Sequence record: LC739537.1
Direction: 5' to 3' (one strand)
Source of the DNA: Escherichia phage phiWec188
DNA length: 64,000 bases
Below the pieces are notes generated by a model, which did not search any database, was not told the DNA's origin, and saw nothing but the letters and a program-made list of their open reading frames with translations. The first letter of the stretch is position 1. Every line of letters begins with the position of its first letter. The position numbers and the translations under genes were made by a program. Below, in pieces: positions 18,350 to 63,560 of the stretch.

Positions 18350-19421
18350 TTTACATAACGAGACTTACAAAACAGGTAAATATCCAGTTTTCATGGGGGA
18401 ACAGTTGGGGATTTTTGATTCTATCAACGTGACTTACCCTGAAATGCACCGTCTGTATAAACTCCAGAAAGCCCAAGATTGGGATGAGAATGAAGTGGAT
18501 CTTAGTCAGACCCGTAAAGACTTTGTAGCGTGTTCAAAAAACAACTACGATGTTATGATCAAGAACTTGTCGTTCCAGTGGGAGAATGATTCCCTGGCAA
18601 AATCAATCATCACTTTGTTCTCTCCGTTTTTGAGCAACAATGAAGCTTGCGCTATGATGATGAAGCAGAGTGAAATGGAAGTGCTTCATGCTCTAACTTA
18701 CTCGGAGATCGTTCGCCAGTGTACTCCAAACCCTGTAGAAGTTATTGATCAGATTATGGAGAACGATAAGATCTTCAACCGTATGGGTATCATTGCAGAG
18801 ATCATGGGAGATTTGGAAGAAGCAGGTCACAAATATGCACTTGGTCTGATTGAAGCTGATGATAAACTACGTTTGCTGGTCATGAAAGGTCTGGTAGCCC
18901 TGATTGGTCTGGAAGGTATCCAGTTTATCTCTTCTTTCTCGGCAACGTTCGCCTTGGCAGAACAGCAACTGTTTGTAGGTGCTTGTAAACTGATTCAGAA
19001 AATCATGTTGGATGAAATCCTGCATGTTAAAATGGACTATGCTGTCATTGATGCTCTGATGCAAGATCCTGTGTGGAAGAAGATCTACGAAGATAACATC
19101 GAAGAACTTACAACTATTCTGGATACAGTTATCGCTCAAGAAGAGCAGTGGTGTGATTATCTGTTTAGTGAAGGACGTTTTATCGTTGGGCTGAATGCTG
19201 AACTATCCCGTCAATGGGTGTACTTCAATGCGGCTCCAATTTATCGTCGTCTGAAGATGAAGCACAGCTTTAAATCTCCTAAACAGAACCCACTACCTTG
19301 GATGGACATTTGGTTAAACCCAGATCAGATTCAAGCAGCGGCGCAAGAGATCCAGGTTACAGCTTATAAACTGAACTCGGCTAACAAAGATGTTTCTGAT
19401 GATATGGAGTTTGACTTTTAA
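18336..19421 (+). CDS. nrdB: ribonucleoside-diphosphate reductase class Ia beta subunit (361 aa)
   Basis: R2-type ferritin-like helices with conserved E/H iron ligands, adjacent to nrdA; GGAGGA RBS. Confidence 0.9.
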   Translation: MAAINLHNETYKTGKYPVFMGEQLGIFDSINVTYPEMHRLYKLQKAQDWDENEVDLSQTRKDFVACSKNNYDVMIKNLSFQWENDSLAKSIITLFSPFLSNNEACAMMMKQSEMEVLHALTYSEIVRQCTPNPVEVIDQIMENDKIFNRMGIIAEIMGDLEEAGHKYALGLIEADDKLRLLVMKGLVALIGLEGIQFISSFSATFALAEQQLFVGACKLIQKIMLDEILHVKMDYAVIDALMQDPVWKKIYEDNIEELTTILDTVIAQEEQWCDYLFSEGRFIVGLNAELSRQWVYFNAAPIYRRLKMKHSFKSPKQNPLPWMDIWLNPDQIQAAAQEIQVTAYKLNSANKDVSDDMEFDF

Positions 19422-19639
19422 TGAAACTTAAATGTGTAGGATTGATCGACACATTCAAAGACGTATTTGACAAAGGGGCTTCCTATGAAGCCTCGGAGTT
19501 AAAGAACGGTTTTTGTGATGTGCATGGTAAACGTCTTAAGAAAAACGGAGAACCCTGGCTTGGTGTTATGTCTTGTGGTCATATTGTGGTTAACGGTGTT
19601 GCAAAGTTTGAAATCGTAAAGGAGGAAGATAATGAGTGA
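19421..19639 (+). CDS. hypothetical protein (72 aa)
   Basis: TAATG overlap with nrdB stop. Confidence 0.5.
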   Translation: MKLKCVGLIDTFKDVFDKGASYEASELKNGFCDVHGKRLKKNGEPWLGVMSCGHIVVNGVAKFEIVKEEDNE

Positions 19640-19775
19640 GTTTCGTTTTTGCCCTATTTGTGGTGGTACAGGTAATGCCTTAATTAGTGCGGAGCAGTAC
19701 AGCCCGTGTTGGCATTGTTCTGGTAGTGGTTTGGTAGTTGAAGAAAACAAAGAGGAGGAAAAAGATGGGGATTGA
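19632..19775 (+). CDS. small zinc-ribbon ORF (47 aa)
   Basis: AAAGGAGGAAGA RBS; CPICGG...CWHCSGSG; overlaps neighbours by a few nt. Confidence 0.4.
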   Translation: MSEFRFCPICGGTGNALISAEQYSPCWHCSGSGLVVEENKEEEKDGD

Positions 19776-20091
19776 TATCGAGTGGAAGATGGTGCAAGGC
19801 GCACCATATAAGAAATGGGAAGAAGTGTTTAAAGGCGATCCGCAGATTGAAGATCAATTCGATGGGGATTTCAACTGGTTTCTTTACGAAGGTATTGGAC
19901 TGGTAAACGTATCCCCGTGGTATGATGCAGATCCTGAAGATTGTGTCTTTGGTATTGAACTTGCGTCAGGATGCAGCGCACGGGCAATAGACCTCACAAG
20001 CTTGGATAAAAAAGCAAACGAGATCTATTTTGAACTGCTTAATAAGTATAACATTGAAACTGAAACGTTAGTATCACAGAACGTCTGGTAA
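19765..20091 (+). CDS. hypothetical protein (108 aa)
   Basis: GAGGAGGAAAAAG RBS at internal ATG of ORF 19738..20091. Confidence 0.5.
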   Translation: MGIDIEWKMVQGAPYKKWEEVFKGDPQIEDQFDGDFNWFLYEGIGLVNVSPWYDADPEDCVFGIELASGCSARAIDLTSLDKKANEIYFELLNKYNIETETLVSQNVW

Positions 20092-20100
20092 GGAGATTAA

Positions 20101-20298
20101 ATGAAAGACCAAATGATTAATGGACCTCGTGTAACAGTTAGTCCTAAAACTTTTGCATCTCTTCTGGACGACACTGGTGAGGTTTATACTTACACAAGAG
20201 ATTCACTGCCTCTGCCTGAAAGTGCACAGGGTTCACGTTCGCTTTTTTATAAAGGTGTTCTTTTTACGGAAGCAAAAGAAGACAAGGAGACTAAATGA
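20101..20298 (+). CDS. hypothetical protein (65 aa)
   Basis: TAAGGAGA RBS. Confidence 0.5.
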   Translation: MKDQMINGPRVTVSPKTFASLLDDTGEVYTYTRDSLPLPESAQGSRSLFYKGVLFTEAKEDKETK

Positions 20299-21287
20299 GA
20301 TACCTGGTAACAGGTGGTCTTGGTTTCATTGGGAGCGCCGTAGTGCGCTCTCTTTGTCAAGATCCTAAAAATGAAGTTTTTGTTATTGATAAAATGGGCT
20401 ATGCTGCTGACATTGAAAATGTCGGAGATATTACTCATGCGAAACTAAGCATGACAGATCTGGTCGATGAAGCACAAGTTAAAAACTTGGTTGTTGAGTG
20501 TAACCCTGATTTCATCATTCACTTGGCAGCAGAGAGTCATGTAGACAATTCGATCAAGAATCCACGAGCTTTTATCGACTCTAACATCATCGGTACATAT
20601 AATCTGTTAGAAGCTGCAAGGCTTCTTCCTAAGAACAAGCTGAAGATGTTTGTACACGTCTCTACAGACGAAGTGTACGGCGATATGGAGGACTCTGGTG
20701 CTCCCTTTACCGAAGAGACAGCTTATGCTCCTTCAAGCCCATACAGCGCGTCTAAGGCGGCATCTGATCACCTTGTCAAAGCTTGGCACCGTACTTACGA
20801 TTTACCTGTAGTGATAACCAACTGTTCCAATAACTTTGGGCCTTACCAACACCCTGAAAAATTGATTCCAAAAGTGATCACGAACATCTTGACAGACCAA
20901 CCTATTCCCGTATACGGTAAAGGCGATCAGGTACGAGATTGGCTTTTCGTAGAAGATCATGCACGAGCTATTATTTTGGCAGCAACGGGCGGGGAAGTAG
21001 GACAAACCTACAACGTAGGTACACGCAATCCTAAAACAAACATGGAAATCATTTACATGATTTGTGATTACATGGATGCTGTTCACCCATCCTTCGGGAC
21101 ATACCCTGCTTCCGGTTTGATTAGTTTTGTTGAAGATCGTAAAGGTCATGACTTGCATTATGAAATCAATCCTGCTAAGATTGAATCTGAACTGGGTTGG
21201 AAAGCAAACTCTACATTCGAAGAAGACTTGTACTCTACGATTGAATGGTATTTAAATAATCCTCAATGGTGGAGTATGAAGATTTAA
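20295..21287 (+). CDS. rmlB: dTDP-glucose 4,6-dehydratase (330 aa)
   Basis: N-terminal Rossmann GGLGFIGS, catalytic YSASK (YxxxK), SDR extended family; first gene of 4-gene rml cluster. Confidence 0.85.
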
Positions 21288-21295
21288 GGAGGGTT

Positions 21296-22174
21296 ATGAA
21301 AGGTATTATTTTAGCGGGAGGAAGTGGAACCCGCCTACATCCTGTAACACGCAGTGTGAGCAAGCAATTGCTCCCTGTGTATGACAAACCTATGATTTAT
21401 TATCCTTTATCAGTCTTGATGTTGTCAGATATTAAGGATATCTTAATCATCACAACCCCAGGCGATCAGGAAGATTTTGAGTATCTTCTTGGAGATGGGT
21501 CTATGTTTGGAATAAAGATCACTTACGCAATGCAGTCTGAACCACGAGGTCTTGCAGATGCTTTCATCATCGGTAAAGATTTTATTGGGGAAGATTCTGT
21601 TGCTCTTATTTTAGGGGATAACTTGTTCTTCGGACAAAGTTTCGGAAAACTCCTTATCCAAGCCAGCGAAATGGTGGATGTTTGGGGTGGAGCTTGTATC
21701 TTCGGGTATCTGGTGAAAGATCCTGAACGATTCGGTGTTGTTGAGTTTGGAAGTAATCGCCAAGCTATCTCTATTGAAGAGAAACCGGAACATCCCAAAT
21801 CAGACTATGCAGTCACGGGTTTGTATTTCTATGACAACTCTGTTGTTCAACGTGCATTGGAAGTAACTCCTTCCGATCGTGGAGAACTGGAGATCACAGA
21901 TATCAATCGCAGCTACCTCGAAGACAGGAAGTTACAAGTGGAAGTTCTTGGAAGAGGATTCACTTGGTTGGATACAGGGACACACGCCAGTCTAATGGAA
22001 GCAGGTCAATTCGTGCAGACTATTGAGAACTGCCAAGGATTGAAGATTGCGTGCCTGGAAGAGATTGCTTTCAAAAAAGGGTGGATTTCTTTAGAGACTT
22101 TGGTGTATCATGGCAACTCATTGAAGAAAACAGAGTACGGGCAATATCTGTTAAAATTAGCGGAGGGTAAATGA
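21296..22174 (+). CDS. rmlA: glucose-1-phosphate thymidylyltransferase (292 aa)
   Basis: [16 protein letters not shown]...[18 protein letters not shown] signature of RmlA; TAAGGAGGG RBS. Confidence 0.9.
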
Positions 22175-22731
22175 AAATAAAAGAATTAAGTATTCCTGGT
22201 CTGGTTGTCTTTAAACCTCAAGTTTACAAAGATGATCGTGGTTCCTTCACGGAGACGTTTAACGAGAAGATTTACGAAGAGGTTATTGGCAAACAAACGT
22301 TTGTTCAGGATAACCATTCATTCTCTACTTTAGGTGTTCTTCGCGGAATGCACTTTCAAGTAAATAACCCGCAAGGTAAGCTTGTACGTTGCACACGAGG
22401 TGAAGTTTTTGACGTGGCTGTAGATCTTCGTGAAGGTAGTCCAACCTTCGGACAATGGGAAGGTGTGATTCTTAGTGGGTGTAACAATAAACAGTTGTGG
22501 ATTCCACCTGGCTTTGCACATGGTTTTGTTGTAACCTCTTATGAAGCCAACTTTGAATACAAGTGCACCAACTACTACGATCCGGCATCTGAACGTAGTT
22601 TGTTGTGGAACGATCCTACTGTGAATATTGATTGGGGTTTTGATATGATTTTCAATGATGAGAATTTTGTACCCATCATTTCGGAAAAGGATGCACAAGC
22701 TAAAACACTGAAGGAGCTTATGGGATCATGA
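22171..22731 (+). CDS. rmlC: dTDP-4-dehydrorhamnose 3,5-epimerase (186 aa)
   Basis: cupin-fold RmlC segments ([21 protein letters not shown]), ATGA overlap with rmlA. Confidence 0.85.
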
Positions 22732-23570
22732 AAACATATTTAGTATTGGGTGGTAATGGTCAATTAGGTCAGGCACTGCGTAAAGTGGTGCCGGAGAATG
22801 TGACTTTGGTGTATCCAGAAAAGCGTGTAGATATCACCAGTTTTGAAGCTGTGCGGAAAGCGATCATGGAAACCCCAAATATTAACGGTGTTATCAACTG
22901 TGCGGCATACACTGCTGTGGACAAAGCCGAGACAGATGTTGATGCAGCTATGGCTGTAAATTTACACGGGGCAGCTAATATTGCTGCCTTCTGTAAGGCT
23001 TGGGATATTGACATGGTGCATATTTCTACTGACTATGTGTTCAACAGCGATAAACCGTTGTTCCATCAGGATGAACCCAACCCTATCAATGTTTACGGGT
23101 TATCTAAAAGTTTGGGTGAAGCTGCTGTTCGTGGTATCTACCATAAAGCTTTTATTATCCGCACGGCTTCTGTGTATAGCGAGTTTGGTAACAACTTCCT
23201 GAAGACTATGGTATCTCGTTACAACGATGGTCAAAGAAACTTCTCGGTAGTTGCAGATCAAACATCTCGACCAACTTATGCCCCAGATTTGGCTAAGATG
23301 ATTTTCCAAGTGTTGGAAACAGGATATAACACCCGTACTTTGCATTACGCTGGGAACATCACTGTTTCGTGGCACCAGTTCGCAAAAATGATATTGACAC
23401 GTATGCCTGAATCTGTTATTATACACCCGACCTCTGCTGCAACCTATAATTCGGCAGCGATGCGACCAGCAAAGTCTATACTAATTACGTCTGGTTGGAA
23501 CGAACCTTCAAGCGTCGGACAAGGTATTGAAGAATCTTTAGCAGTATTACTTAATAAGGAGAGAGCATGA
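22728..23570 (+). CDS. rmlD: dTDP-4-dehydrorhamnose reductase (280 aa)
   Basis: N-terminal GGNGQLG Rossmann motif, ISTDYVF segment; follows rmlC with ATGA overlap. Confidence 0.8.
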   Translation: MKTYLVLGGNGQLGQALRKVVPENVTLVYPEKRVDITSFEAVRKAIMETPNINGVINCAAYTAVDKAETDVDAAMAVNLHGAANIAAFCKAWDIDMVHISTDYVFNSDKPLFHQDEPNPINVYGLSKSLGEAAVRGIYHKAFIIRTASVYSEFGNNFLKTMVSRYNDGQRNFSVVADQTSRPTYAPDLAKMIFQVLETGYNTRTLHYAGNITVSWHQFAKMILTRMPESVIIHPTSAATYNSAAMRPAKSILITSGWNEPSSVGQGIEESLAVLLNKERA

Positions 23571-25823: not shown

Positions 25824-26506
25824 CTACAATTATCGCAACCAAAAACAAGATCCTTAGCGACGGTAAAGTAACTTTCGGTGGTCGTGTAGATTCAACCAAT
25901 TTCAAGAAAGTACGTAAGATTGGGGATTATCTCGTAGGTGGCGCAGGGCGTTTAACTTCGGTTTTAGCTTTCTTCCAGTGGTTCGAACAGAACCTGCAAT
26001 GTGAAGCGGCGCGTGAGGCAGTGCCTGGGTTGATGATCAGTTCTAACCCTGATCGTGAAGATGAAGAGTTTATTGCTCTCGTTGTTCACCCAGACGGACG
26101 TATTTTCCTGCATGAAGGTAATGATCCTACCCGTGCATACCCAATCGACGAAGAATACTACGCAGTAGGCAGTGGTTCCGATTTTGCGCTCGCAGCACTG
26201 GATGGTGGTGCTTCTCCAGAAGCTGCTATGGAGGTTGCCAAGAAGCGTGACGCATACTCTGGTGGCGAAACATTCGTTGAAGAATTAGACGAGATCATCG
26301 AACTGACTGACGAAGATCTCGAAAACTTCACCAAACAAGAACTGATCAACCTGCTTAAGTTTGGCGATCCTGCTGGTGAAGAAACTCCTCGTGACGTGGC
26401 AGGTGACGAGACGGCAGGAGAAGTTGTAGTAGAAAAAGACTTGACTTCAAAACCGGAAAATATTAATCTCGTAAATGTAGCGGATTTCGAGAATCCCGCT
26501 TCTTAA
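25820..26506 (+). CDS. HslV / proteasome beta-subunit-like Ntn-hydrolase with acidic C-terminal extension (228 aa)
   Basis: N-terminal MTTI (Thr directly after Met), KKVRKIG...VGGAG and AVGSGSDFALAAL segments parallel HslV (TTIV..., KKVRRL..AGFAGG, AIGSGG). Confidence 0.55.
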   Translation: MTTIIATKNKILSDGKVTFGGRVDSTNFKKVRKIGDYLVGGAGRLTSVLAFFQWFEQNLQCEAAREAVPGLMISSNPDREDEEFIALVVHPDGRIFLHEGNDPTRAYPIDEEYYAVGSGSDFALAALDGGASPEAAMEVAKKRDAYSGGETFVEELDEIIELTDEDLENFTKQELINLLKFGDPAGEETPRDVAGDETAGEVVVEKDLTSKPENINLVNVADFENPAS

Positions 26507-26511
26507 TAAAA

Positions 26512-26535
26512 CTGCCCCTTCGGGGGCATTTCTTA
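26512..26535 (+). terminator. rho-independent terminator (GCCCC-TTCG-GGGGC + ATTTCTT)
   Basis: GC stem-loop after stop; coordinates approximate. Confidence 0.5.
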
Positions 26536-26551
26536 CGCAGAGGAGATTACT

Positions 26552-26989
26552 ATGTTGAACGTTCCTGTTAAATTCGTCGATAGCTGTGTTAATGCTTACC
26601 AACAAACTTGTAAACGTGCCTCAAACTGTTTGCAGTCTTTGATTCAAACGCGGTACGTGATCCAAAAGAAAAGAAAGTGGTTTGGTAAGGATTCTTATAG
26701 TGTTAATGCGTTCGGGGAGTATCAACTCCAGTATGACGATAACATGCAACACATCTTAGAGTTTTTACTGATAAAAGATAAAATCTCCCCTGCGGATTAC
26801 CAGTTACTTAAATTCTACGATCAGAGTTTGTCTATTGAGGAAGTTATTCAAGATATCCTTTCTCGTAAGACAGATAAGAACACTGTTGGTATTACAAACT
26901 TAGAGATGCAATTGCTCAATGAGATCTTTTTGTTTGTGGAAGATGAGTCTGTAACTAAGGAGGAGCTTTTAAATGGCTTTAAGCTATGA
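26552..26989 (+). CDS. hypothetical protein (145 aa)
   Basis: GAGGAGA RBS. Confidence 0.5.
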   Translation: MLNVPVKFVDSCVNAYQQTCKRASNCLQSLIQTRYVIQKKRKWFGKDSYSVNAFGEYQLQYDDNMQHILEFLLIKDKISPADYQLLKFYDQSLSIEEVIQDILSRKTDKNTVGITNLEMQLLNEIFLFVEDESVTKEELLNGFKL

Positions 26990-27481
26990 TCGTCCAGAGT
27001 CCGATTACTATCCGACTCCGCAAAAAGCGATTAACTCGTTATTTAGCATTATTGATTTTAAAAATTTGAAAGAGGAAGGATTTACATTTGCAGAACCGTG
27101 TAGAGGACAAGCAGCGGCTATTTACCGTCACTTTCCTGAAGGTTCTCAGTATTGTGAGCTTGAAGAAGGTAAAGATTATTTTAGTCACGTATGGGAAAAT
27201 CGTCCCGACATTATAATCACGAATCCTCCATTCAAGCTGGCATTAGAGTTCTTGGAAAAGAGCTTGAAAGAAGCAGACGTGTCAGTCTACCTGCTTCGCC
27301 TGGGATTCCTTGAGTCAAAGAAACGTCGAGCGTTTCATCAAGAAAACCCCCTACGAATTTGATTGTACTCTCCGAACGTCCTTCGTTCGTAGCAGGTGGA
27401 ACAGATAAGACAGCGTATGCTTGGTACGTATACGATCCAAAACAAATTTTGGGTCTAACTCAACCATTTTATTTCGTTTAA
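26973..27481 (+). CDS. phage Dam-like N6-adenine DNA methyltransferase, interrupted by a -1 frame change at an A4C5 tract (about 27343-27351)
   Basis: frame 1 (26973..27362) carries YYPTP and IIITNPPF (motif IV-like); downstream -1 frame continues ...SERPSFVAGGTDKTAYAWYVYDP to a stop at about 27481; junction at GAAAACCCCC (heptamer A_AAC_CCC). Confidence 0.45.
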
Positions 27482-27491
27482 GGAGCACACT

Positions 27492-27728
27492 ATGGCTAAA
27501 TTTACTATGACCGTTTCTATTGATTTTGATGATGAGGACGGAGGCATTAACTTAGGTATTGCTCAGAGCCTGGAAGGTGATTTGAACCCGACACAAGCAG
27601 CTATGGCGGTATTCTTTAAAGATACCATAACAGTTACAGCAACACATTCTGCAAATCAAACTGTAGATTACGGTAGCATGGTTCAAGCCTTGGTTGATGC
27701 TCAAAACGGTGAAGATTGGGATGATTAA
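27492..27728 (+). CDS. hypothetical acidic protein (78 aa)
   Basis: TAAGGAG RBS. Confidence 0.5.
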   Translation: MAKFTMTVSIDFDDEDGGINLGIAQSLEGDLNPTQAAMAVFFKDTITVTATHSANQTVDYGSMVQALVDAQNGEDWDD

Positions 27729-27931
27729 TGGCTTATAATTATTATTGCGTTTACGCAAATGAAGCAAAGAAAGGCGACACTGGCACTAACGTCTATGCAG
27801 AATCAGAAACACATGCAAAAGAAATTGGTGCGATCCTTCTGTCACGTTGGACAGGTGGTAACTATTCTGCTGTGGATTTGTTCGCAGAAATGGATGATAC
27901 CATCCAAGAAGATACTATCACCACAACCTGA
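27728..27931 (+). CDS. hypothetical protein (67 aa)
   Basis: TAATG overlap. Confidence 0.45.
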   Translation: MAYNYYCVYANEAKKGDTGTNVYAESETHAKEIGAILLSRWTGGNYSAVDLFAEMDDTIQEDTITTT

Positions 27932-27995
27932 TATTGCTTGAAGTAGTTGGTACTCTCCTTGTTTCGGCAAGGAGGGTATTTTTAAGGAGGAAGTT

Positions 27996-28187
27996 ATGCA
28001 AGAGAATGAAGAGGTAGTTGTTAAAAAGTTCCCGACACGTACACAGGCAGTCAACTTTGCTTCTGATTTGCTTGTAGATGTGGAAGGAGTTCTCATTAGA
28101 CATGAAGGGGATTCCTGGAATGTCTCTTATAACGTAAACAGATCAATTATCTATTTAGGAGAAGAGAACTTCTCTCGTATAGATTGA
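27996..28187 (+). CDS. hypothetical protein (63 aa)
   Basis: TAAGGAGGAAG RBS. Confidence 0.5.
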   Translation: MQENEEVVVKKFPTRTQAVNFASDLLVDVEGVLIRHEGDSWNVSYNVNRSIIYLGEENFSRID

Positions 28188-42560: not shown

Positions 42561-42830
42561 TTACCAAGAAACATACATAGAGTAAACAAGATCATTACAG
42601 TCTGTCGAGAACGTAGCACTGCAACCTTGAGATCTTAATTTGTCACAAATCCCGCGTACAATCGAAGCTTGTAGTTCTTTACCTTGCGGTAGACCTAAAG
42701 CTTTCACTGGGTGTTGAATCTGTATGCTGTAGTAACCCTCTTCGGCTGCTGTTGTGATTAAGGTTTTTGCTCGTTGGATATACTCAAAGTTCACAGAGTC
42801 TGCCAAAGCGTGTAAAGAATATGCGTCCAT
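42561..42830 (-). CDS. hypothetical protein (89 aa)
   Basis: GAGGAGG RBS. Confidence 0.5.
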   Translation of the reverse strand: MDAYSLHALADSVNFEYIQRAKTLITTAAEEGYYSIQIQHPVKALGLPQGKELQASIVRGICDKLRSQGCSATFSTDCNDLVYSMYVSW

Positions 42831-42839
42831 GTTACCTCC

Positions 42840-43175
42840 TCAAGAACGATCGAGTTTCATTAAAAATACAATCATAGCTGCACGCAGGGGCTTATCGTCT
42901 CCACGGGACGGTACACCTTCTGTTTTCGCAAGCCAACCGCGAGGAAAACCATCTTCCCCTGTTACAGGACTGATACAAATCCTGTGTTTTACTATGATAG
43001 CCCAAGCATCTGCTGGATCATTGCAGTAATCATACCAAGTGTAATTGCCGTTGCAGTCATTTCCCACTGATCGTCCATCTGCATTGTGCGGATAACCTAA
43101 AGGCTTGACACCGTGGACTGCTGCAAACACACGCTTGTTGATTTCAAAATCACTCATTACTCCATATTCTGTCAT
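42840..43175 (-). CDS. NinX/DUF2591-like protein (111 aa)
   Basis: pattern ...FEINKRVFAA..G...DGRSVG...W.DYCNDPADAWAII...I...P resembles phage NinX family as I recall it. Confidence 0.35.
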   Translation of the reverse strand: MTEYGVMSDFEINKRVFAAVHGVKPLGYPHNADGRSVGNDCNGNYTWYDYCNDPADAWAIIVKHRICISPVTGEDGFPRGWLAKTEGVPSRGDDKPLRAAMIVFLMKLDRS

Positions 43176-60122: not shown

Positions 60123-60139
60123 GGTGTTATTCCTATATT

Positions 60140-60202
60140 AGACGGGAAACATTCCCGCCCTACGTGATAAATAATAATATAAGCGTGATCCGGTGTCAAT
60201 AG
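60140..60202 (-). promoter_or_regulatory. promoter-leader cassette (TTGACA-N17-TATTAT, CACGTAGGGCGGGAA-TGT-TTCCCG hairpin)
   Basis: conserved GATCCGGTGTCAATAG upstream element and CCCTACGTGATAAAT leader on + strand. Confidence 0.45.
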
Positions 60203-60373
60203 GTAGAATTGTAAAGATTTGATAGTTTATCTCTTTGATGTTTTGTTGTTTGATAGGTGTTAGCTATCAATATATAGCGGGGTCGTCCGGTGATTACCTC
60301 CCCCGTTGCCAGTGCCGCCCGTTCAATAAGCATAACAAAAAACAGGACAAAAACAAGCCCTGTTTTGTAAAGA

Positions 60374-60577
60374 TTAGATGATCTGCATATCCTCCACGAT
60401 AATTTCTAATTTCCAAACAAGATGATCTAAGCTCCCTGATAAAAATGATTCCGATACATAACCGCCATCGGACACCGTAGCAAGGATCTCGCCATTTGCT
60501 TGCTCTTTGATTTGAACATCCAGGCGGTTAGCCTTTGCTTTATTCAGGACGGCGATCAGGCGGTTAGCTGTAGTCAT
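60374..60577 (-). CDS. hypothetical protein (67 aa)
   Basis: GGAAGGAAAAACACC RBS at internal ATG. Confidence 0.5.
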   Translation of the reverse strand: MTTANRLIAVLNKAKANRLDVQIKEQANGEILATVSDGGYVSESFLSGSLDHLVWKLEIIVEDMQII

Positions 60578-60597
60578 GGTGTTTTTCCTTCCAGTTG

Positions 60598-60660
60598 TGA
60601 GCGGCACCATTGCCGCCCTACGAAATACATCTTACACTATCCGGCACATCATGCAAGCTA
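60598..60660 (-). promoter_or_regulatory. promoter-leader cassette (TTGCAT-N16-TAAGAT, CGTAGGGCGGCA-ATGG-TGCCGC hairpin)
   Basis: member of repeated cassette family. Confidence 0.4.
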
Positions 60661-60662
60661 TT

Positions 60663-60854
60663 TTATACTTCGTCACCTATATAATCAGATCTGTTCTTCT
60701 CTGTCATACGCTTAAGCAATTCCTGCATATGGCTTATAGCTTGCAATGTGTCTTCTTCCAGGCTTGAATCCACATAATCAGGATCATTCTTTACCTTGCT
60801 ATGGTTGTGATAACGCAACGCTGCTAATACCTTTCTAACTTGTTCTGCATTCAT
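60663..60854 (-). CDS. hypothetical protein (63 aa)
   Basis: TAAGGAGTAATAAAA RBS. Confidence 0.5.
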   Translation of the reverse strand: MNAEQVRKVLAALRYHNHSKVKNDPDYVDSSLEEDTLQAISHMQELLKRMTEKNRSDYIGDEV

Positions 60855-60866
60855 TTTTATTACTCC

Positions 60867-61001
60867 TTAAAACCAGGTGCCAACCGTTTCCAATAGGTCA
60901 CTGACTACCAGAACAACACCGATTAGCACATATTTAACCAGGAAGGGGATTAGCGCCAGCGTTGCTACTATGATCCCCATTGTCATGATTACCTTTCTCA
61001 T
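60867..61001 (-). CDS. small membrane ORF (44 aa)
   Basis: ATG overlaps stop of upstream gene (ATGA); two hydrophobic segments. Confidence 0.35.
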   Translation of the reverse strand: MRKVIMTMGIIVATLALIPFLVKYVLIGVVLVVSDLLETVGTWF

Positions 61002-61288
61002 TGTTGGCGGTTTACGTAAGCTTTACCGTTTACGGTCATCGGTATGGCCTCAAGGTCTGGATCTTCCTTAAGGTCGCGTGCAAGCTCACCGCACCGGACA
61101 CCCTCGAATCCGTGGTATTCTGTTTCCCCGTCCTTAAAAGTTTTAGCGGCAAGGCATAGGCGATAATTAACCCCGATCCGGTTTACTGCGTTGATATCGG
61201 TTAACGTGATCGATTCAGGCAAATCGTTAGCCATTACAGGCGCGTTAATACCAACAACCAGGGCAACTACTGCGATCATCTTTTTCAT
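60998..61288 (-). CDS. secreted protein with signal peptide (96 aa)
   Basis: MKKMIAVVALVVGINAPVMA|ND signal peptide; GGAAGAGGATAG RBS. Confidence 0.55.
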   Translation of the reverse strand: MKKMIAVVALVVGINAPVMANDLPESITLTDINAVNRIGVNYRLCLAAKTFKDGETEYHGFEGVRCGELARDLKEDPDLEAIPMTVNGKAYVNRQQ

Positions 61289-61339
61289 GTTGTCTATCCT
61301 CTTCCTATTGCGTTTAATGGGGCGTTGCCGCCCCGCTGA

Positions 61340-61564
61340 TTAATTACGTTGGCTGTTTTCTACTATCGACTTTAAAATAAAGTCAGTTACGCCCTTTGTG
61401 TCATCCGGCGGGAAGTTATCAGCATAGCACCAGGCATAAGCGCCATCAACTGGAAGCGGGAAGATATGCACGCTTAGATCCCCATAATCATATTCAGTTA
61501 TTTCTACCTTGAGATCCGACAATTCAGCCAGTTTAATAGCTTGTAACATTCTAACAATACTCAT
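61340..61564 (-). CDS. hypothetical protein (74 aa)
   Basis: AGAAAGGAAAAG RBS; GGGCGGCAACGCCCC hairpin in 5' leader. Confidence 0.5.
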   Translation of the reverse strand: MSIVRMLQAIKLAELSDLKVEITEYDYGDLSVHIFPLPVDGAYAWCYADNFPPDDTKGVTDFILKSIVENSQRN

Positions 61565-61603
61565 AATCTTTTCCTTTCTGATAGTGGGGCGTTGCCGCCC
61601 TTT

Positions 61604-61849
61604 TTAGAATTGACGCGTTACGCGATCGGTGTTTTCTTCCTTTACAACCTTACCTGTTGCTACCATTTCGCTGATTTTTTCATCGTTGATAATGTTGTTA
61701 TTCTCTTTGATCCAGGTCCAACGATTACCCATCAAAGTATTCCCTTTTAACGCATAATACCAAATGTTGTTAGGCATTTTGATCCAAGCCATACCGCGCG
61801 AATTTTTCGGGTCGTGGTAGATATTGCCAATTTTAGTTGTCTGGTACAT
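61604..61849 (-). CDS. hypothetical protein (81 aa)
   Basis: AAAGGTAAAACATC RBS. Confidence 0.5.
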   Translation of the reverse strand: MYQTTKIGNIYHDPKNSRGMAWIKMPNNIWYYALKGNTLMGNRWTWIKENNNIINDEKISEMVATGKVVKEENTDRVTRQF

Positions 61850-61869
61850 GATGTTTTACCTTTTTCCAG

Positions 61870-61932
61870 GAAGCGGGAACTATTCCCGCCCTACGTGGTA
61901 AATATTATCATATTGACGATCCGTGTCAATAG
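61870..61932 (-). promoter_or_regulatory. promoter-leader cassette (TTGACA-N16-TAATAT, CACGTAGGGCGGGAA-TAG-TTCCCGC hairpin)
   Basis: conserved GATCCGTGTCAATAG and CCCTACGTGGTAAATATTATCA elements. Confidence 0.45.
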
Positions 61933-61949
61933 TTTTTTGGAGTTTTTAC

Positions 61950-62351
61950 TTACAGGCCCAAGATAGCCCGTGCATCGTTACGCTGTTTAGTCTCAGTCAT
62001 GATCATATTTAAAATGGTCGGATTAATATAACCTTTCTCCATAGCTTCGCGGACTGGTACATCATAAGCACCGAAACCAGTGCGAACGATACGCACATCA
62101 TTCAGATTAGTGTTATAGATCCCGCCTAAATCAACCGACTGGAAAACGGCATCAACACTATATTCAGTGTTGCCATCGTTGACGTTTTCGATCTCAATGT
62201 TGCGAGACACCGCCCAACGTTTACAGCCTCCAATCAGGTAGCATTGTTCCTTTGTCAGATTACCATTGGAAACCGCATATTTCAGGGCTTCAGCGCCGAA
62301 AGTTTTAGCAATGTTAACAACGTCAGTATAAGAAAGGATCGTAATGTTCAT
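61950..62351 (-). CDS. hypothetical protein (133 aa)
   Basis: GGAG RBS; own promoter cassette. Confidence 0.55.
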   Translation of the reverse strand: MNITILSYTDVVNIAKTFGAEALKYAVSNGNLTKEQCYLIGGCKRWAVSRNIEIENVNDGNTEYSVDAVFQSVDLGGIYNTNLNDVRIVRTGFGAYDVPVREAMEKGYINPTILNMIMTETKQRNDARAILGL

Positions 62352-62369
62352 GGTTATAACTCCAAATGG

Positions 62370-62435
62370 TGAGCGGCACCATTGCCGCCCTACGTGGTAA
62401 ATATTATCACACTGGTGATCTGTGTCAATACTATT
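62370..62435 (-). promoter_or_regulatory. promoter-leader cassette (TTGACA-N16-TAATAT with TG extension, CACGTAGGGCGGCA-ATGG-TGCCGC hairpin)
   Basis: near-identical to cassette at 61.9 kb. Confidence 0.45.
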
Positions 62436-62453
62436 TATTCAATATAAATAAAA

Positions 62454-62669
62454 TTATGATGTGCGCTCAATTATGATAATGGTCTGTGGGATCTCGTTTT
62501 CTGCCACTATCAGGGCTTTTTTCTGCGTGATAGTTATTTTAACACGTTGCAACGATGCGGTAAAGTCTTTCATTTCGTTATGTGCGGACTTGCTGCAATG
62601 CCAGATCTCAGGCTTACCAACTTGTAAGCCGCGTAAAAATTCCGTTTTGCCTGCTTTGTTCGTGAACAT
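62454..62669 (-). CDS. hypothetical protein (71 aa)
   Basis: AAGGTGAAACAA RBS at ATG. Confidence 0.45.
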   Translation of the reverse strand: MFTNKAGKTEFLRGLQVGKPEIWHCSKSAHNEMKDFTASLQRVKITITQKKALIVAENEIPQTIIIIERTS

Positions 62670-62679
62670 TTGTTTCACC

Positions 62680-62784
62680 TTAACCGATACCGTGAGAAGA
62701 TAGGATCATATTAGCCATAGTTGCAACCACTCCAACCGATAACGCCAGGCCAACTATTGCAACCGTGAAAATTTTCTCTAACAT
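62680..62784 (-). CDS. small membrane peptide (34 aa)
   Basis: AAAGAGGGTAGCATC RBS; single TM helix; ORF-track N-terminal extension would overlap promoter cassette. Confidence 0.3.
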   Translation of the reverse strand: MLEKIFTVAIVGLALSVGVVATMANMILSSHGIG

Positions 62785-62867
62785 GATGCTACCCTCTTTA
62801 ATGGGCGTTGCCTTATTGCCCCGCCCTACGTGATACACTTTACCAGAAAACAAAATACTGTCAAGAT

Positions 62868-63005
62868 TTATTTTACTTCCCAAACGGAAAATTCACTACC
62901 TGGCGGGATCATTCTTTTAATCTTGTTTGCTGCTGCTACCAGGTCCACGGCTTGCACTGTAATAATATAACCAATTGTCGAGGCTGTTGCATTGAAAGTT
63001 TTCAT
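62868..63005 (-). CDS. small ORF (45 aa)
   Basis: GGTGAGGGTAATATA RBS; own cassette upstream. Confidence 0.35.
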   Translation of the reverse strand: MKTFNATASTIGYIITVQAVDLVAAANKIKRMIPPGSEFSVWEVK

Positions 63006-63021
63006 TATATTACCCTCACCA

Positions 63022-63075
63022 TCGGCGGCACCATTGCCGCCCTACAAGATGAATACTACGCGCTTACTTTGCTGT
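63022..63075 (-). promoter_or_regulatory. promoter-leader cassette (TTGACA-N17-TAGTAT, TTGTAGGGCGGCA-ATGG-TGCCGCC hairpin)
   Basis: member of repeated cassette family. Confidence 0.4.
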
Positions 63076-63294: not shown

Positions 63295-63480
63295 TTATTT
63301 GACTATGTGACGATCATTATATTCAGTGTAAAACTCGCAACCATCGTCACGACTATCAAGTTTAACAATGTAACCAGTTTGATAACGTTCAATAGATACC
63401 ATTGCATAAAACTTACCATTCAGGATATTTCTAACCAGATCGCCTTTTACCAATTCTTTCGTTTTCTTGTAAGTAGTCAT
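63295..63480 (-). CDS. hypothetical protein (61 aa)
   Basis: internal ATG; cassette upstream. Confidence 0.45.
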   Translation of the reverse strand: MTTYKKTKELVKGDLVRNILNGKFYAMVSIERYQTGYIVKLDSRDDGCEFYTEYNDRHIVK

Positions 63481-63497
63481 GATGTTTTCTCTTCTGT

Positions 63498-63560
63498 TAG
63501 GCGGGGCGCTTGTCGCCCCTATGTGATACATCTTATCAGGTTGATTCAGCTTGTCAAACT
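63498..63560 (-). promoter_or_regulatory. promoter-leader cassette (TTGACA-N16-TAAGAT, CACATAGGGGCGACAAGCGCCCC hairpin)
   Basis: member of repeated cassette family. Confidence 0.4.

Follow-up and report, generated by a model that had tools for sequence, protein, structure and literature searches.

The genome of Escherichia phage phiWec188 contains a methyltransferase-like reading frame that stops early, directly behind a short run of A and C, and whose apparent C-terminus continues in the -1 frame. Is this a recoding site, a switch driven by slippage, a broken gene or a fault in the record? An earlier note, made from the sequence of the locus, had offered all four explanations. We followed them up in the window, the stretch of 64,000 nucleotides of record LC739537.1 to which all positions refer. 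The locus very probably arose through an unprogrammed single-base indel, either real or introduced as an error. Two of the four proposals, pseudogene and sequencing error, survived the analysis; programmed frameshifting was rejected and phase variation became unlikely.

Layout of the locus and comparison with homologues

The coordinates and motifs that had been described for the locus, from the short ORF with YYPTP and NPPF to the A4C5 junction and the -1 continuation, were confirmed (Table 1). YYPTP corresponds to residues 12-16 and NPPF to residues 84-87. The frames meet at GAAAACCCCC (27342-27351), where A4 (27343-27346) precedes the C run. The 0 frame ends with ...CAA GAA AAC CCC CTA CGA ATT TGA, the TGA being located at 27360-27362. 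Directly behind a TGA at 27311-27313, the -1 frame stays open from 27314 until it meets the TAA at 27479-27481, giving an overlap of the two frames of 46 nt; its product reads ...KPPTNLIVLSERPSFVAGGTDKTAYAWYVYDPKQILGLTQPFYFV. In the deposited annotation of phiWec188, a 149,831-bp contig, the 129-aa ORF is matched exactly by BDU13251.1 ('hypothetical protein'). A 40-aa ORF further downstream, starting with TTG at 27359, was considered as a separate gene and discarded; it has no Shine-Dalgarno sequence and constitutes the conserved C-terminus of the family.

Table 1. Features of the disrupted gene in the window and sequence of the tract in phiWec188 and its relatives.
Feature	Position	Strand	Description and basis
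Whole disrupted gene	26973..27481	+	509 nt; counterpart is the intact 510-nt, 169-aa gene of relatives (PHROG 799, small NPPF methyltransferase-like protein)
ORF as it stands	26973..27362	+	129 aa: wild-type residues 1-126, three out-of-frame codons (L-R-I), TGA
Shine-Dalgarno sequence AAGGAGGAG	26957..26965	+	Strong; 7 nt 5' of the ATG at 26973; read directly from the sequence
C5 run, site of the one-base deletion	27347..27351	+	DNA alignment with relatives
Formal X_XXY_YYZ heptamer A_AAC_CCC	27344..27350	+	Created by the deletion only; unconserved; read from the sequence
C-terminal coding segment in the -1 frame	27350..27481	+	Wild-type residues 127-169 and TAA
Tract in phiWec188 (window)			AAAA-CCCCC-TAC; DNA alignment
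Tract in phiWec190			AAAA-CCCCCC-TAC; DNA alignment
Tract in PsgM04F and phiWec179			AAAA-CCCACC-TAC; DNA alignment
Tract in SF1-1 and phAPEC8_ev052			AAT-CCACCA-AC; DNA alignment

A megablast search of GenBank phages with the sequence 26500-28000 returned 70 records; these are Phapecoctavirus-like myoviruses of E. coli, about 150 kb in size. All five orthologues that were aligned (phiWec190, PsgM04F, phiWec179, SF1-1 and phAPEC8_ev052) are annotated with a single CDS of 510 nt and 169 aa. When the 0 frame was joined to the -1 frame at the C run, the resulting fused protein was 100% identical over 169 aa to the protein of phiWec190 (BDU13652.1, LC739539; E = 3e-111), 99% identical to those of PsgM04F and phiWec179 and 90% identical to those of SF1-1 and phAPEC8_ev052. 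The match across the join exceeds chance by far. That one methyltransferase-like gene is broken at A4C5, as the earlier note had claimed, is borne out by the full identity of the fused protein to the intact one of phiWec190. The two frames, which might also have turned out to be unrelated genes, are encoded by the orthologues as one.

The same was seen at larger distance. A search of a large database with the fused protein yielded 260 homologues with E <= 0.001, mostly about 165-180 aa long among the matches listed, and each of the 46 homologues that were aligned is read in one frame. By tblastn the protein was present in 533 phage records, in 457 of which at least 80% of it was covered at one place. 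The family-invariant residues R136, P137, F139, W151 and D155 of the 46-sequence alignment all fall 3' of the shift, and the -1 segment (residues 127-169) also supplies three strands of the core sheet predicted in an AF2 model.

In phiWec190 the gene occupies the same position as in phiWec188; an HslV-like peptidase and a 145-aa ORF precede it, and ORFs of 78 and 67 aa follow downstream. The difference is one of length, 510 nt in phiWec190 versus 509 nt in phiWec188, where one C of C6 is gone and a 129-aa hypothetical protein is annotated. Intact orthologues, assigned to PHROG 799 'DNA methyltransferase', are also found in other Stephanstirmvirinae and Phapecoctavirus-like phages. We concluded that the locus is one conserved phage gene, and neither two genes nor a recoding site.

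A second broken copy was found in a metagenome (ENA ERZ17292900, contig k87_3490150, 1283-1791). It carries a separate 1-nt deletion, GGGAAAAT to GGGAAAT, at the W-E-N codons directly before motif IV, and the remainder of this copy is identical to phAPEC8_ev052.

The protein family and the effect of the truncation

The fused protein matched the PHROG 799 'DNA methyltransferase' profile over residues 4-157 (E = 9.5e-55, 187.6 bits). No significant family or solved relative was obtained against Pfam, NCBIfam and the PDB sequences, and hmmscan against Pfam-A at E <= 1 gave only sub-threshold EcoRI_methylase and MTS matches over the NPPF region, and no Dam model. From the N- to the C-terminus the conserved motifs are X (YPTP), I (EPCRG) and IV (NPPF), in the gamma-class order of M.TaqI and HsdM. 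Among the 46 diverse homologues N84, P85 and P86 are invariant, and at residue 87 the query and almost every row shown have F, a few rows having Y. The motif I loop has invariant E41, P42 and C43, and G45 is nearly so.

The AF2 model (mean pLDDT 90.1) predicts a class I SAM-dependent methyltransferase fold. Its best Foldseek matches in the PDB were M.TaqI, Dim1/KsgA/Erm (Erm38), PH1948, the HsdM subunits of StySJI and EcoKI, and M.BseCI, the model matching methyltransferase folds with a probability of 1.00, E of about 1e-4 to 1e-3 and TM-scores of 0.46-0.62. With M.TaqI, HsdM (M.EcoKI) and KsgA/Dim1/Erm the phiWec188 protein has in common the motif order X-I-IV and the predicted fold; unlike them it comprises only 169 aa, has no target-recognition domain and is 10-18% identical to them at the TM-scores given above. 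According to the model it is a 169-aa minimal amino-methyltransferase core of the gamma type (M.TaqI/HsdM-like) without a separate target-recognition domain.

The designation 'Dam-like' was therefore imprecise, as the protein matches no Pfam Dam or MTase model and its predicted fold lies nearest to M.TaqI, HsdM and KsgA/Erm. With the Dam family (E. coli and T4 Dam; MethyltransfD12, PF02086; phage Dam, PF05869) it shares a (D/N)PP(Y/F)-type motif and the frequent orphan occurrence in phage genomes, but the HMM match is missing, the order of the motifs is another one and the nearest folds are other than Dam. No Dam structure was present among the best 50 fold matches of the model. Methylation of adenine by the PHROG 799 protein, with DNA as the annotated substrate, is plausible. 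The labels given to homologues in the databases vary between 'DNA methyltransferase', 'TrmN6' and 'dimethyladenosine transferase'.

In a subset of the family, comprising at least five members, the stretch between the RPSF and G-TD motifs (query residues ~139-143) is extended by about 30 aa that contain a C..C...C.CGG pattern. This insertion may be a zinc-ribbon-like module that replaces the missing target-recognition domain.

The truncated product of phiWec188 keeps motifs X, I and IV and lacks the last 43 residues, including the strands 129-132, 149-154 and 166-168 of the AF2 model and the invariant C-terminal residues of the alignment. Because these invariant residues and three core beta-strands are lost, the truncated protein should be inactive. 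BDU13251.1 represents a truncated fragment, and the entry should be flagged as frameshifted or corrected.

History of the C run, recoding and phase variation

Besides the orthologues in Table 1, CCCACC was found in phiWec181, phiWec186 and one IMG/VR contig. The IMG/VR contig was the single result of a pattern scan for tract variants (CCC + 1-5 nt), which returned none among the genome or metagenome contigs scanned. In the orthologues the junction reads in frame as AACCCCCCT, AACCCACCT or AATCCACCA, and the codons at the site are AAC CCA CCT or AAT CCA CCA in a single frame. Logan SRR34880808 contains C6 and an intact ORF and has one further substitution relative to phiWec188 in 1,110 nt; it is a third strain. 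The comparison establishes the identity of the gene, the position of the deletion and the direction of the change, and the shifted arrangement is not conserved.

The C run thus arose recently and in this lineage only, as a side effect of a synonymous A-to-C change; C5 is a one-off deletion. A synonymous CCA-to-CCC change first turned CCCACC into C6 in the phiWec188/190 lineage. In phiWec188 alone, one C of C6 is missing, and translation stops three codons on. The order, with the substitution first and the deletion second and in phiWec188 only, is set by the third strain, which has C6 together with an intact ORF. The reverse order, loss of the A from CCCACC followed by insertion of a C, was also considered and is disfavoured by the presence of C6 and an intact ORF in this slightly different strain.

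The heptamer A_AAC_CCC, on which the proposal of programmed -1 frameshifting was built, is indeed present and fits X_XXY_YYZ in the 0 frame, as a formal match only. A -1 slip on it, either programmed or as useful leakiness, could rescue translation and yield the full-length enzyme. A prolyl-tRNA slipping by -1 within the C run would restore the exact wild-type ...ENPPTNL..., and the next 0-frame codon is CUA, a rare codon in E. coli. Such a product of the C5 allele would give peptides spanning ...ENPPTNLIVLSER. Against this stands that the YYY triplet is CCC, which is poorly slippery in the -1 direction, that the heptamer is confined to this lineage and missing in the relatives, and that the orthologues examined are single-frame, bar the one metagenome copy broken elsewhere. 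Single-frame orthologues imply that there is no selection for frameshifting. The 98 nt downstream fold with -21.9 kcal/mol (z = -0.95), and 28 of 200 shuffled sequences were as stable, hence no significant structure was detected there; no Shine-Dalgarno-like element was found in the 20 nt upstream of the heptamer. On the basis of the unconserved layout and the absence of significant downstream structure we rejected programmed -1 frameshifting. Accidental slippage at a low level, while conceivable, would be leakiness with no programme behind it, and translational rescue in either form is extremely improbable.

The comparison with known programmed -1 sites points in the same direction. At the sites of dnaX, of IS3-family transposases and of the tail assembly chaperone G/GT, too, a 0 frame overlaps a -1 frame and a heptamer of the form X_XXY_YYZ is present. 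At those sites, however, orthologues preserve both the slippery site and the arrangement in two frames, and each of the two products has a use, whereas in phiWec188 the layout occurs in one isolate only and the supposed frameshift product is the ancestral protein.

A slipped-strand ON/OFF switch would mean that the C run varies in length often enough for genomes with C6 (methylase-ON) and C5 (OFF) to be mixed in phage populations, and that phiWec188 and phiWec190 are two snapshots of it. The two base sequences differ by the length of the tract alone in 63.5 kb, as they would under such a switch; this is a single event and may be an error. The gene is also methyltransferase-like, and phase variation of methyltransferases is known from Haemophilus, Neisseria and Helicobacter. 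Contingency tracts are typically about 8 nt or more and thus longer than the one found here, and a long tract conserved among relatives, as expected of a contingency locus, was not observed, the run being 5 nt in phiWec188 and 6 nt in two relatives. The tract appears as a recent accident of a synonymous change, and all other relatives examined either have it in interrupted form (CCCACC) or lack it (CCACCA). Two tract states were seen in all, of which C5 was found once, the third strain having C6. The other broken allele, in the metagenome, is broken at a different site, which speaks for a dispensable gene that is lost sporadically, and against a dedicated switch. Phase variation is therefore at best weakly suggested, and we regard it as improbable.

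With phasevarions, in which mod genes carry homopolymer or tetranucleotide tracts, phiWec188 shares a homopolymer in a methyltransferase-like ORF whose length sets ON or OFF. It differs from them in that its tract is short, new and unconserved, and in being a lytic phage as opposed to a host-adapted bacterium. A nascent phage 'phasevarion' would combine both ideas: the C run would be prone to slippage, giving ON (C6) and OFF (C5) genomes in lysates, and a -1 slip of prolyl-tRNA before CUA would provide a low amount of wild-type enzyme from the OFF genomes. We consider this combination very improbable. As a candidate for recoding or phase variation the locus is unimportant, since the evidence indicates an ordinary one-base indel.

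A mutation of the phage or an error of the record

phiWec188 and phiWec190 originate from one laboratory, were obtained from urban sewage with E. coli TK001 as the isolation host and have been proposed as one species; both are viable and have the same qualitative host range (PMC12695924). Aligned to phiWec190, positions 1-42911 of the window showed 0 mismatches and 1 gap, which is the C of the tract. The remainder of the window equals phiWec190 up to ~63476, leaving the C of the tract as the sole base difference in 63.5 kb, and the three flanking proteins that were looked up bear accessions of both phages. A second difference was detected at the end of this region. About 800 bp of phiWec190 (LC739539, ~129123-129921) with three small ORFs (BDU13841-BDU13843) are missing from the window, and the junction, at 63476-63535, sits in an intergenic element of about 60 nt that is present several times. 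Recombination between the repeats may truly have deleted this segment, or the repeats may have collapsed in the assembly.

Repeated intergenic elements were also observed between the small ORFs at 60123-63058, each a GC-rich hairpin (e.g. GGCGGCACCATTGCCGCC) followed by a CCTACGTGATAAATA-like sequence. In appearance they resemble terminator/promoter cassettes of the early region. Separately, the ends of LC739539 are identical over 148 nt (window 42764-42911), which suggests that an overlap from the assembly of a circular or circularly permuted contig was left untrimmed.

It is quite possible, though we put it at somewhat under an even chance, that phiWec188 truly has C6 and an intact gene and that the deposited homopolymer is one base short through an error of consensus or assembly. 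A change from C6 to C5 is a classic consensus error, and G/C runs of at least 6 would number only two in the 63.5 kb, C6 being one of them. The gene otherwise displays no decay, its fused translation being fully identical to the phiWec190 protein, and with zero substitutions between the window and phiWec190 there is no sign of natural divergence of the isolates. The only two differences, a homopolymer length and a repeat-bounded deletion that could be a repeat collapse, both belong to classes that assemblies get wrong. The remaining homopolymers speak against such an error. The colinear 63.5 kb contain 223 runs of at least 5, of which 35 have a length of at least 6, and only the run in the tract differs from phiWec190; the other 222, including 34 runs of 6-7 that are mostly A or T, all match. 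Across 32 kb compared with PsgM04F (~95% identity) no other isolated frame-breaking indel was found in conserved sequence. The data thus look highly accurate, and a miscalled C6 is rare in an accurate short-read consensus.

Since all other runs match phiWec190 and no other frame-breaking indel is seen against PsgM04F, the assembly appears accurate, and this favours a real difference. On the same side, the isolates are separated by a second event too, the ~800-bp absence. We infer that the base is missing in the phage itself, beyond the record. In our judgement there is about an even chance that the cause is a real mutation, which replication slippage produced very recently in a gene that phiWec188 can do without. 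The gene is evidently dispensable, as supported by the independent break in the metagenome and by the viability of phiWec188 and phiWec190.

Should the deletion be real, phiWec188 and phiWec190 would form a natural near-isogenic pair that differs in 63.5 kb by the frameshift and the ~800-bp deletion of three ORFs. The pair would then be a natural knockout for the PHROG 799 protein, an uncharacterised protein that lacks a Pfam model and occurs in more than 500 phage genomes. Virion methylomes and plating on restricting hosts would in that case offer a cheap route to the function of this protein.

Two further observations were made. PsgM04F (OR584014.1) was deposited as a Pseudomonas coronafaciens phage; over the region of window 1-32184 it shares 95-99% identity with these E. 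coli phages, and its host assignment looks questionable. At ~20295-23570 (phiWec190 19343-22618) lies a complete set of genes for the dTDP-L-rhamnose pathway which, according to the annotation of phiWec190, consists of an rffG-like dehydratase, a glucose-1-phosphate thymidylyltransferase, an rfbC-like epimerase and an rfbD-like reductase.
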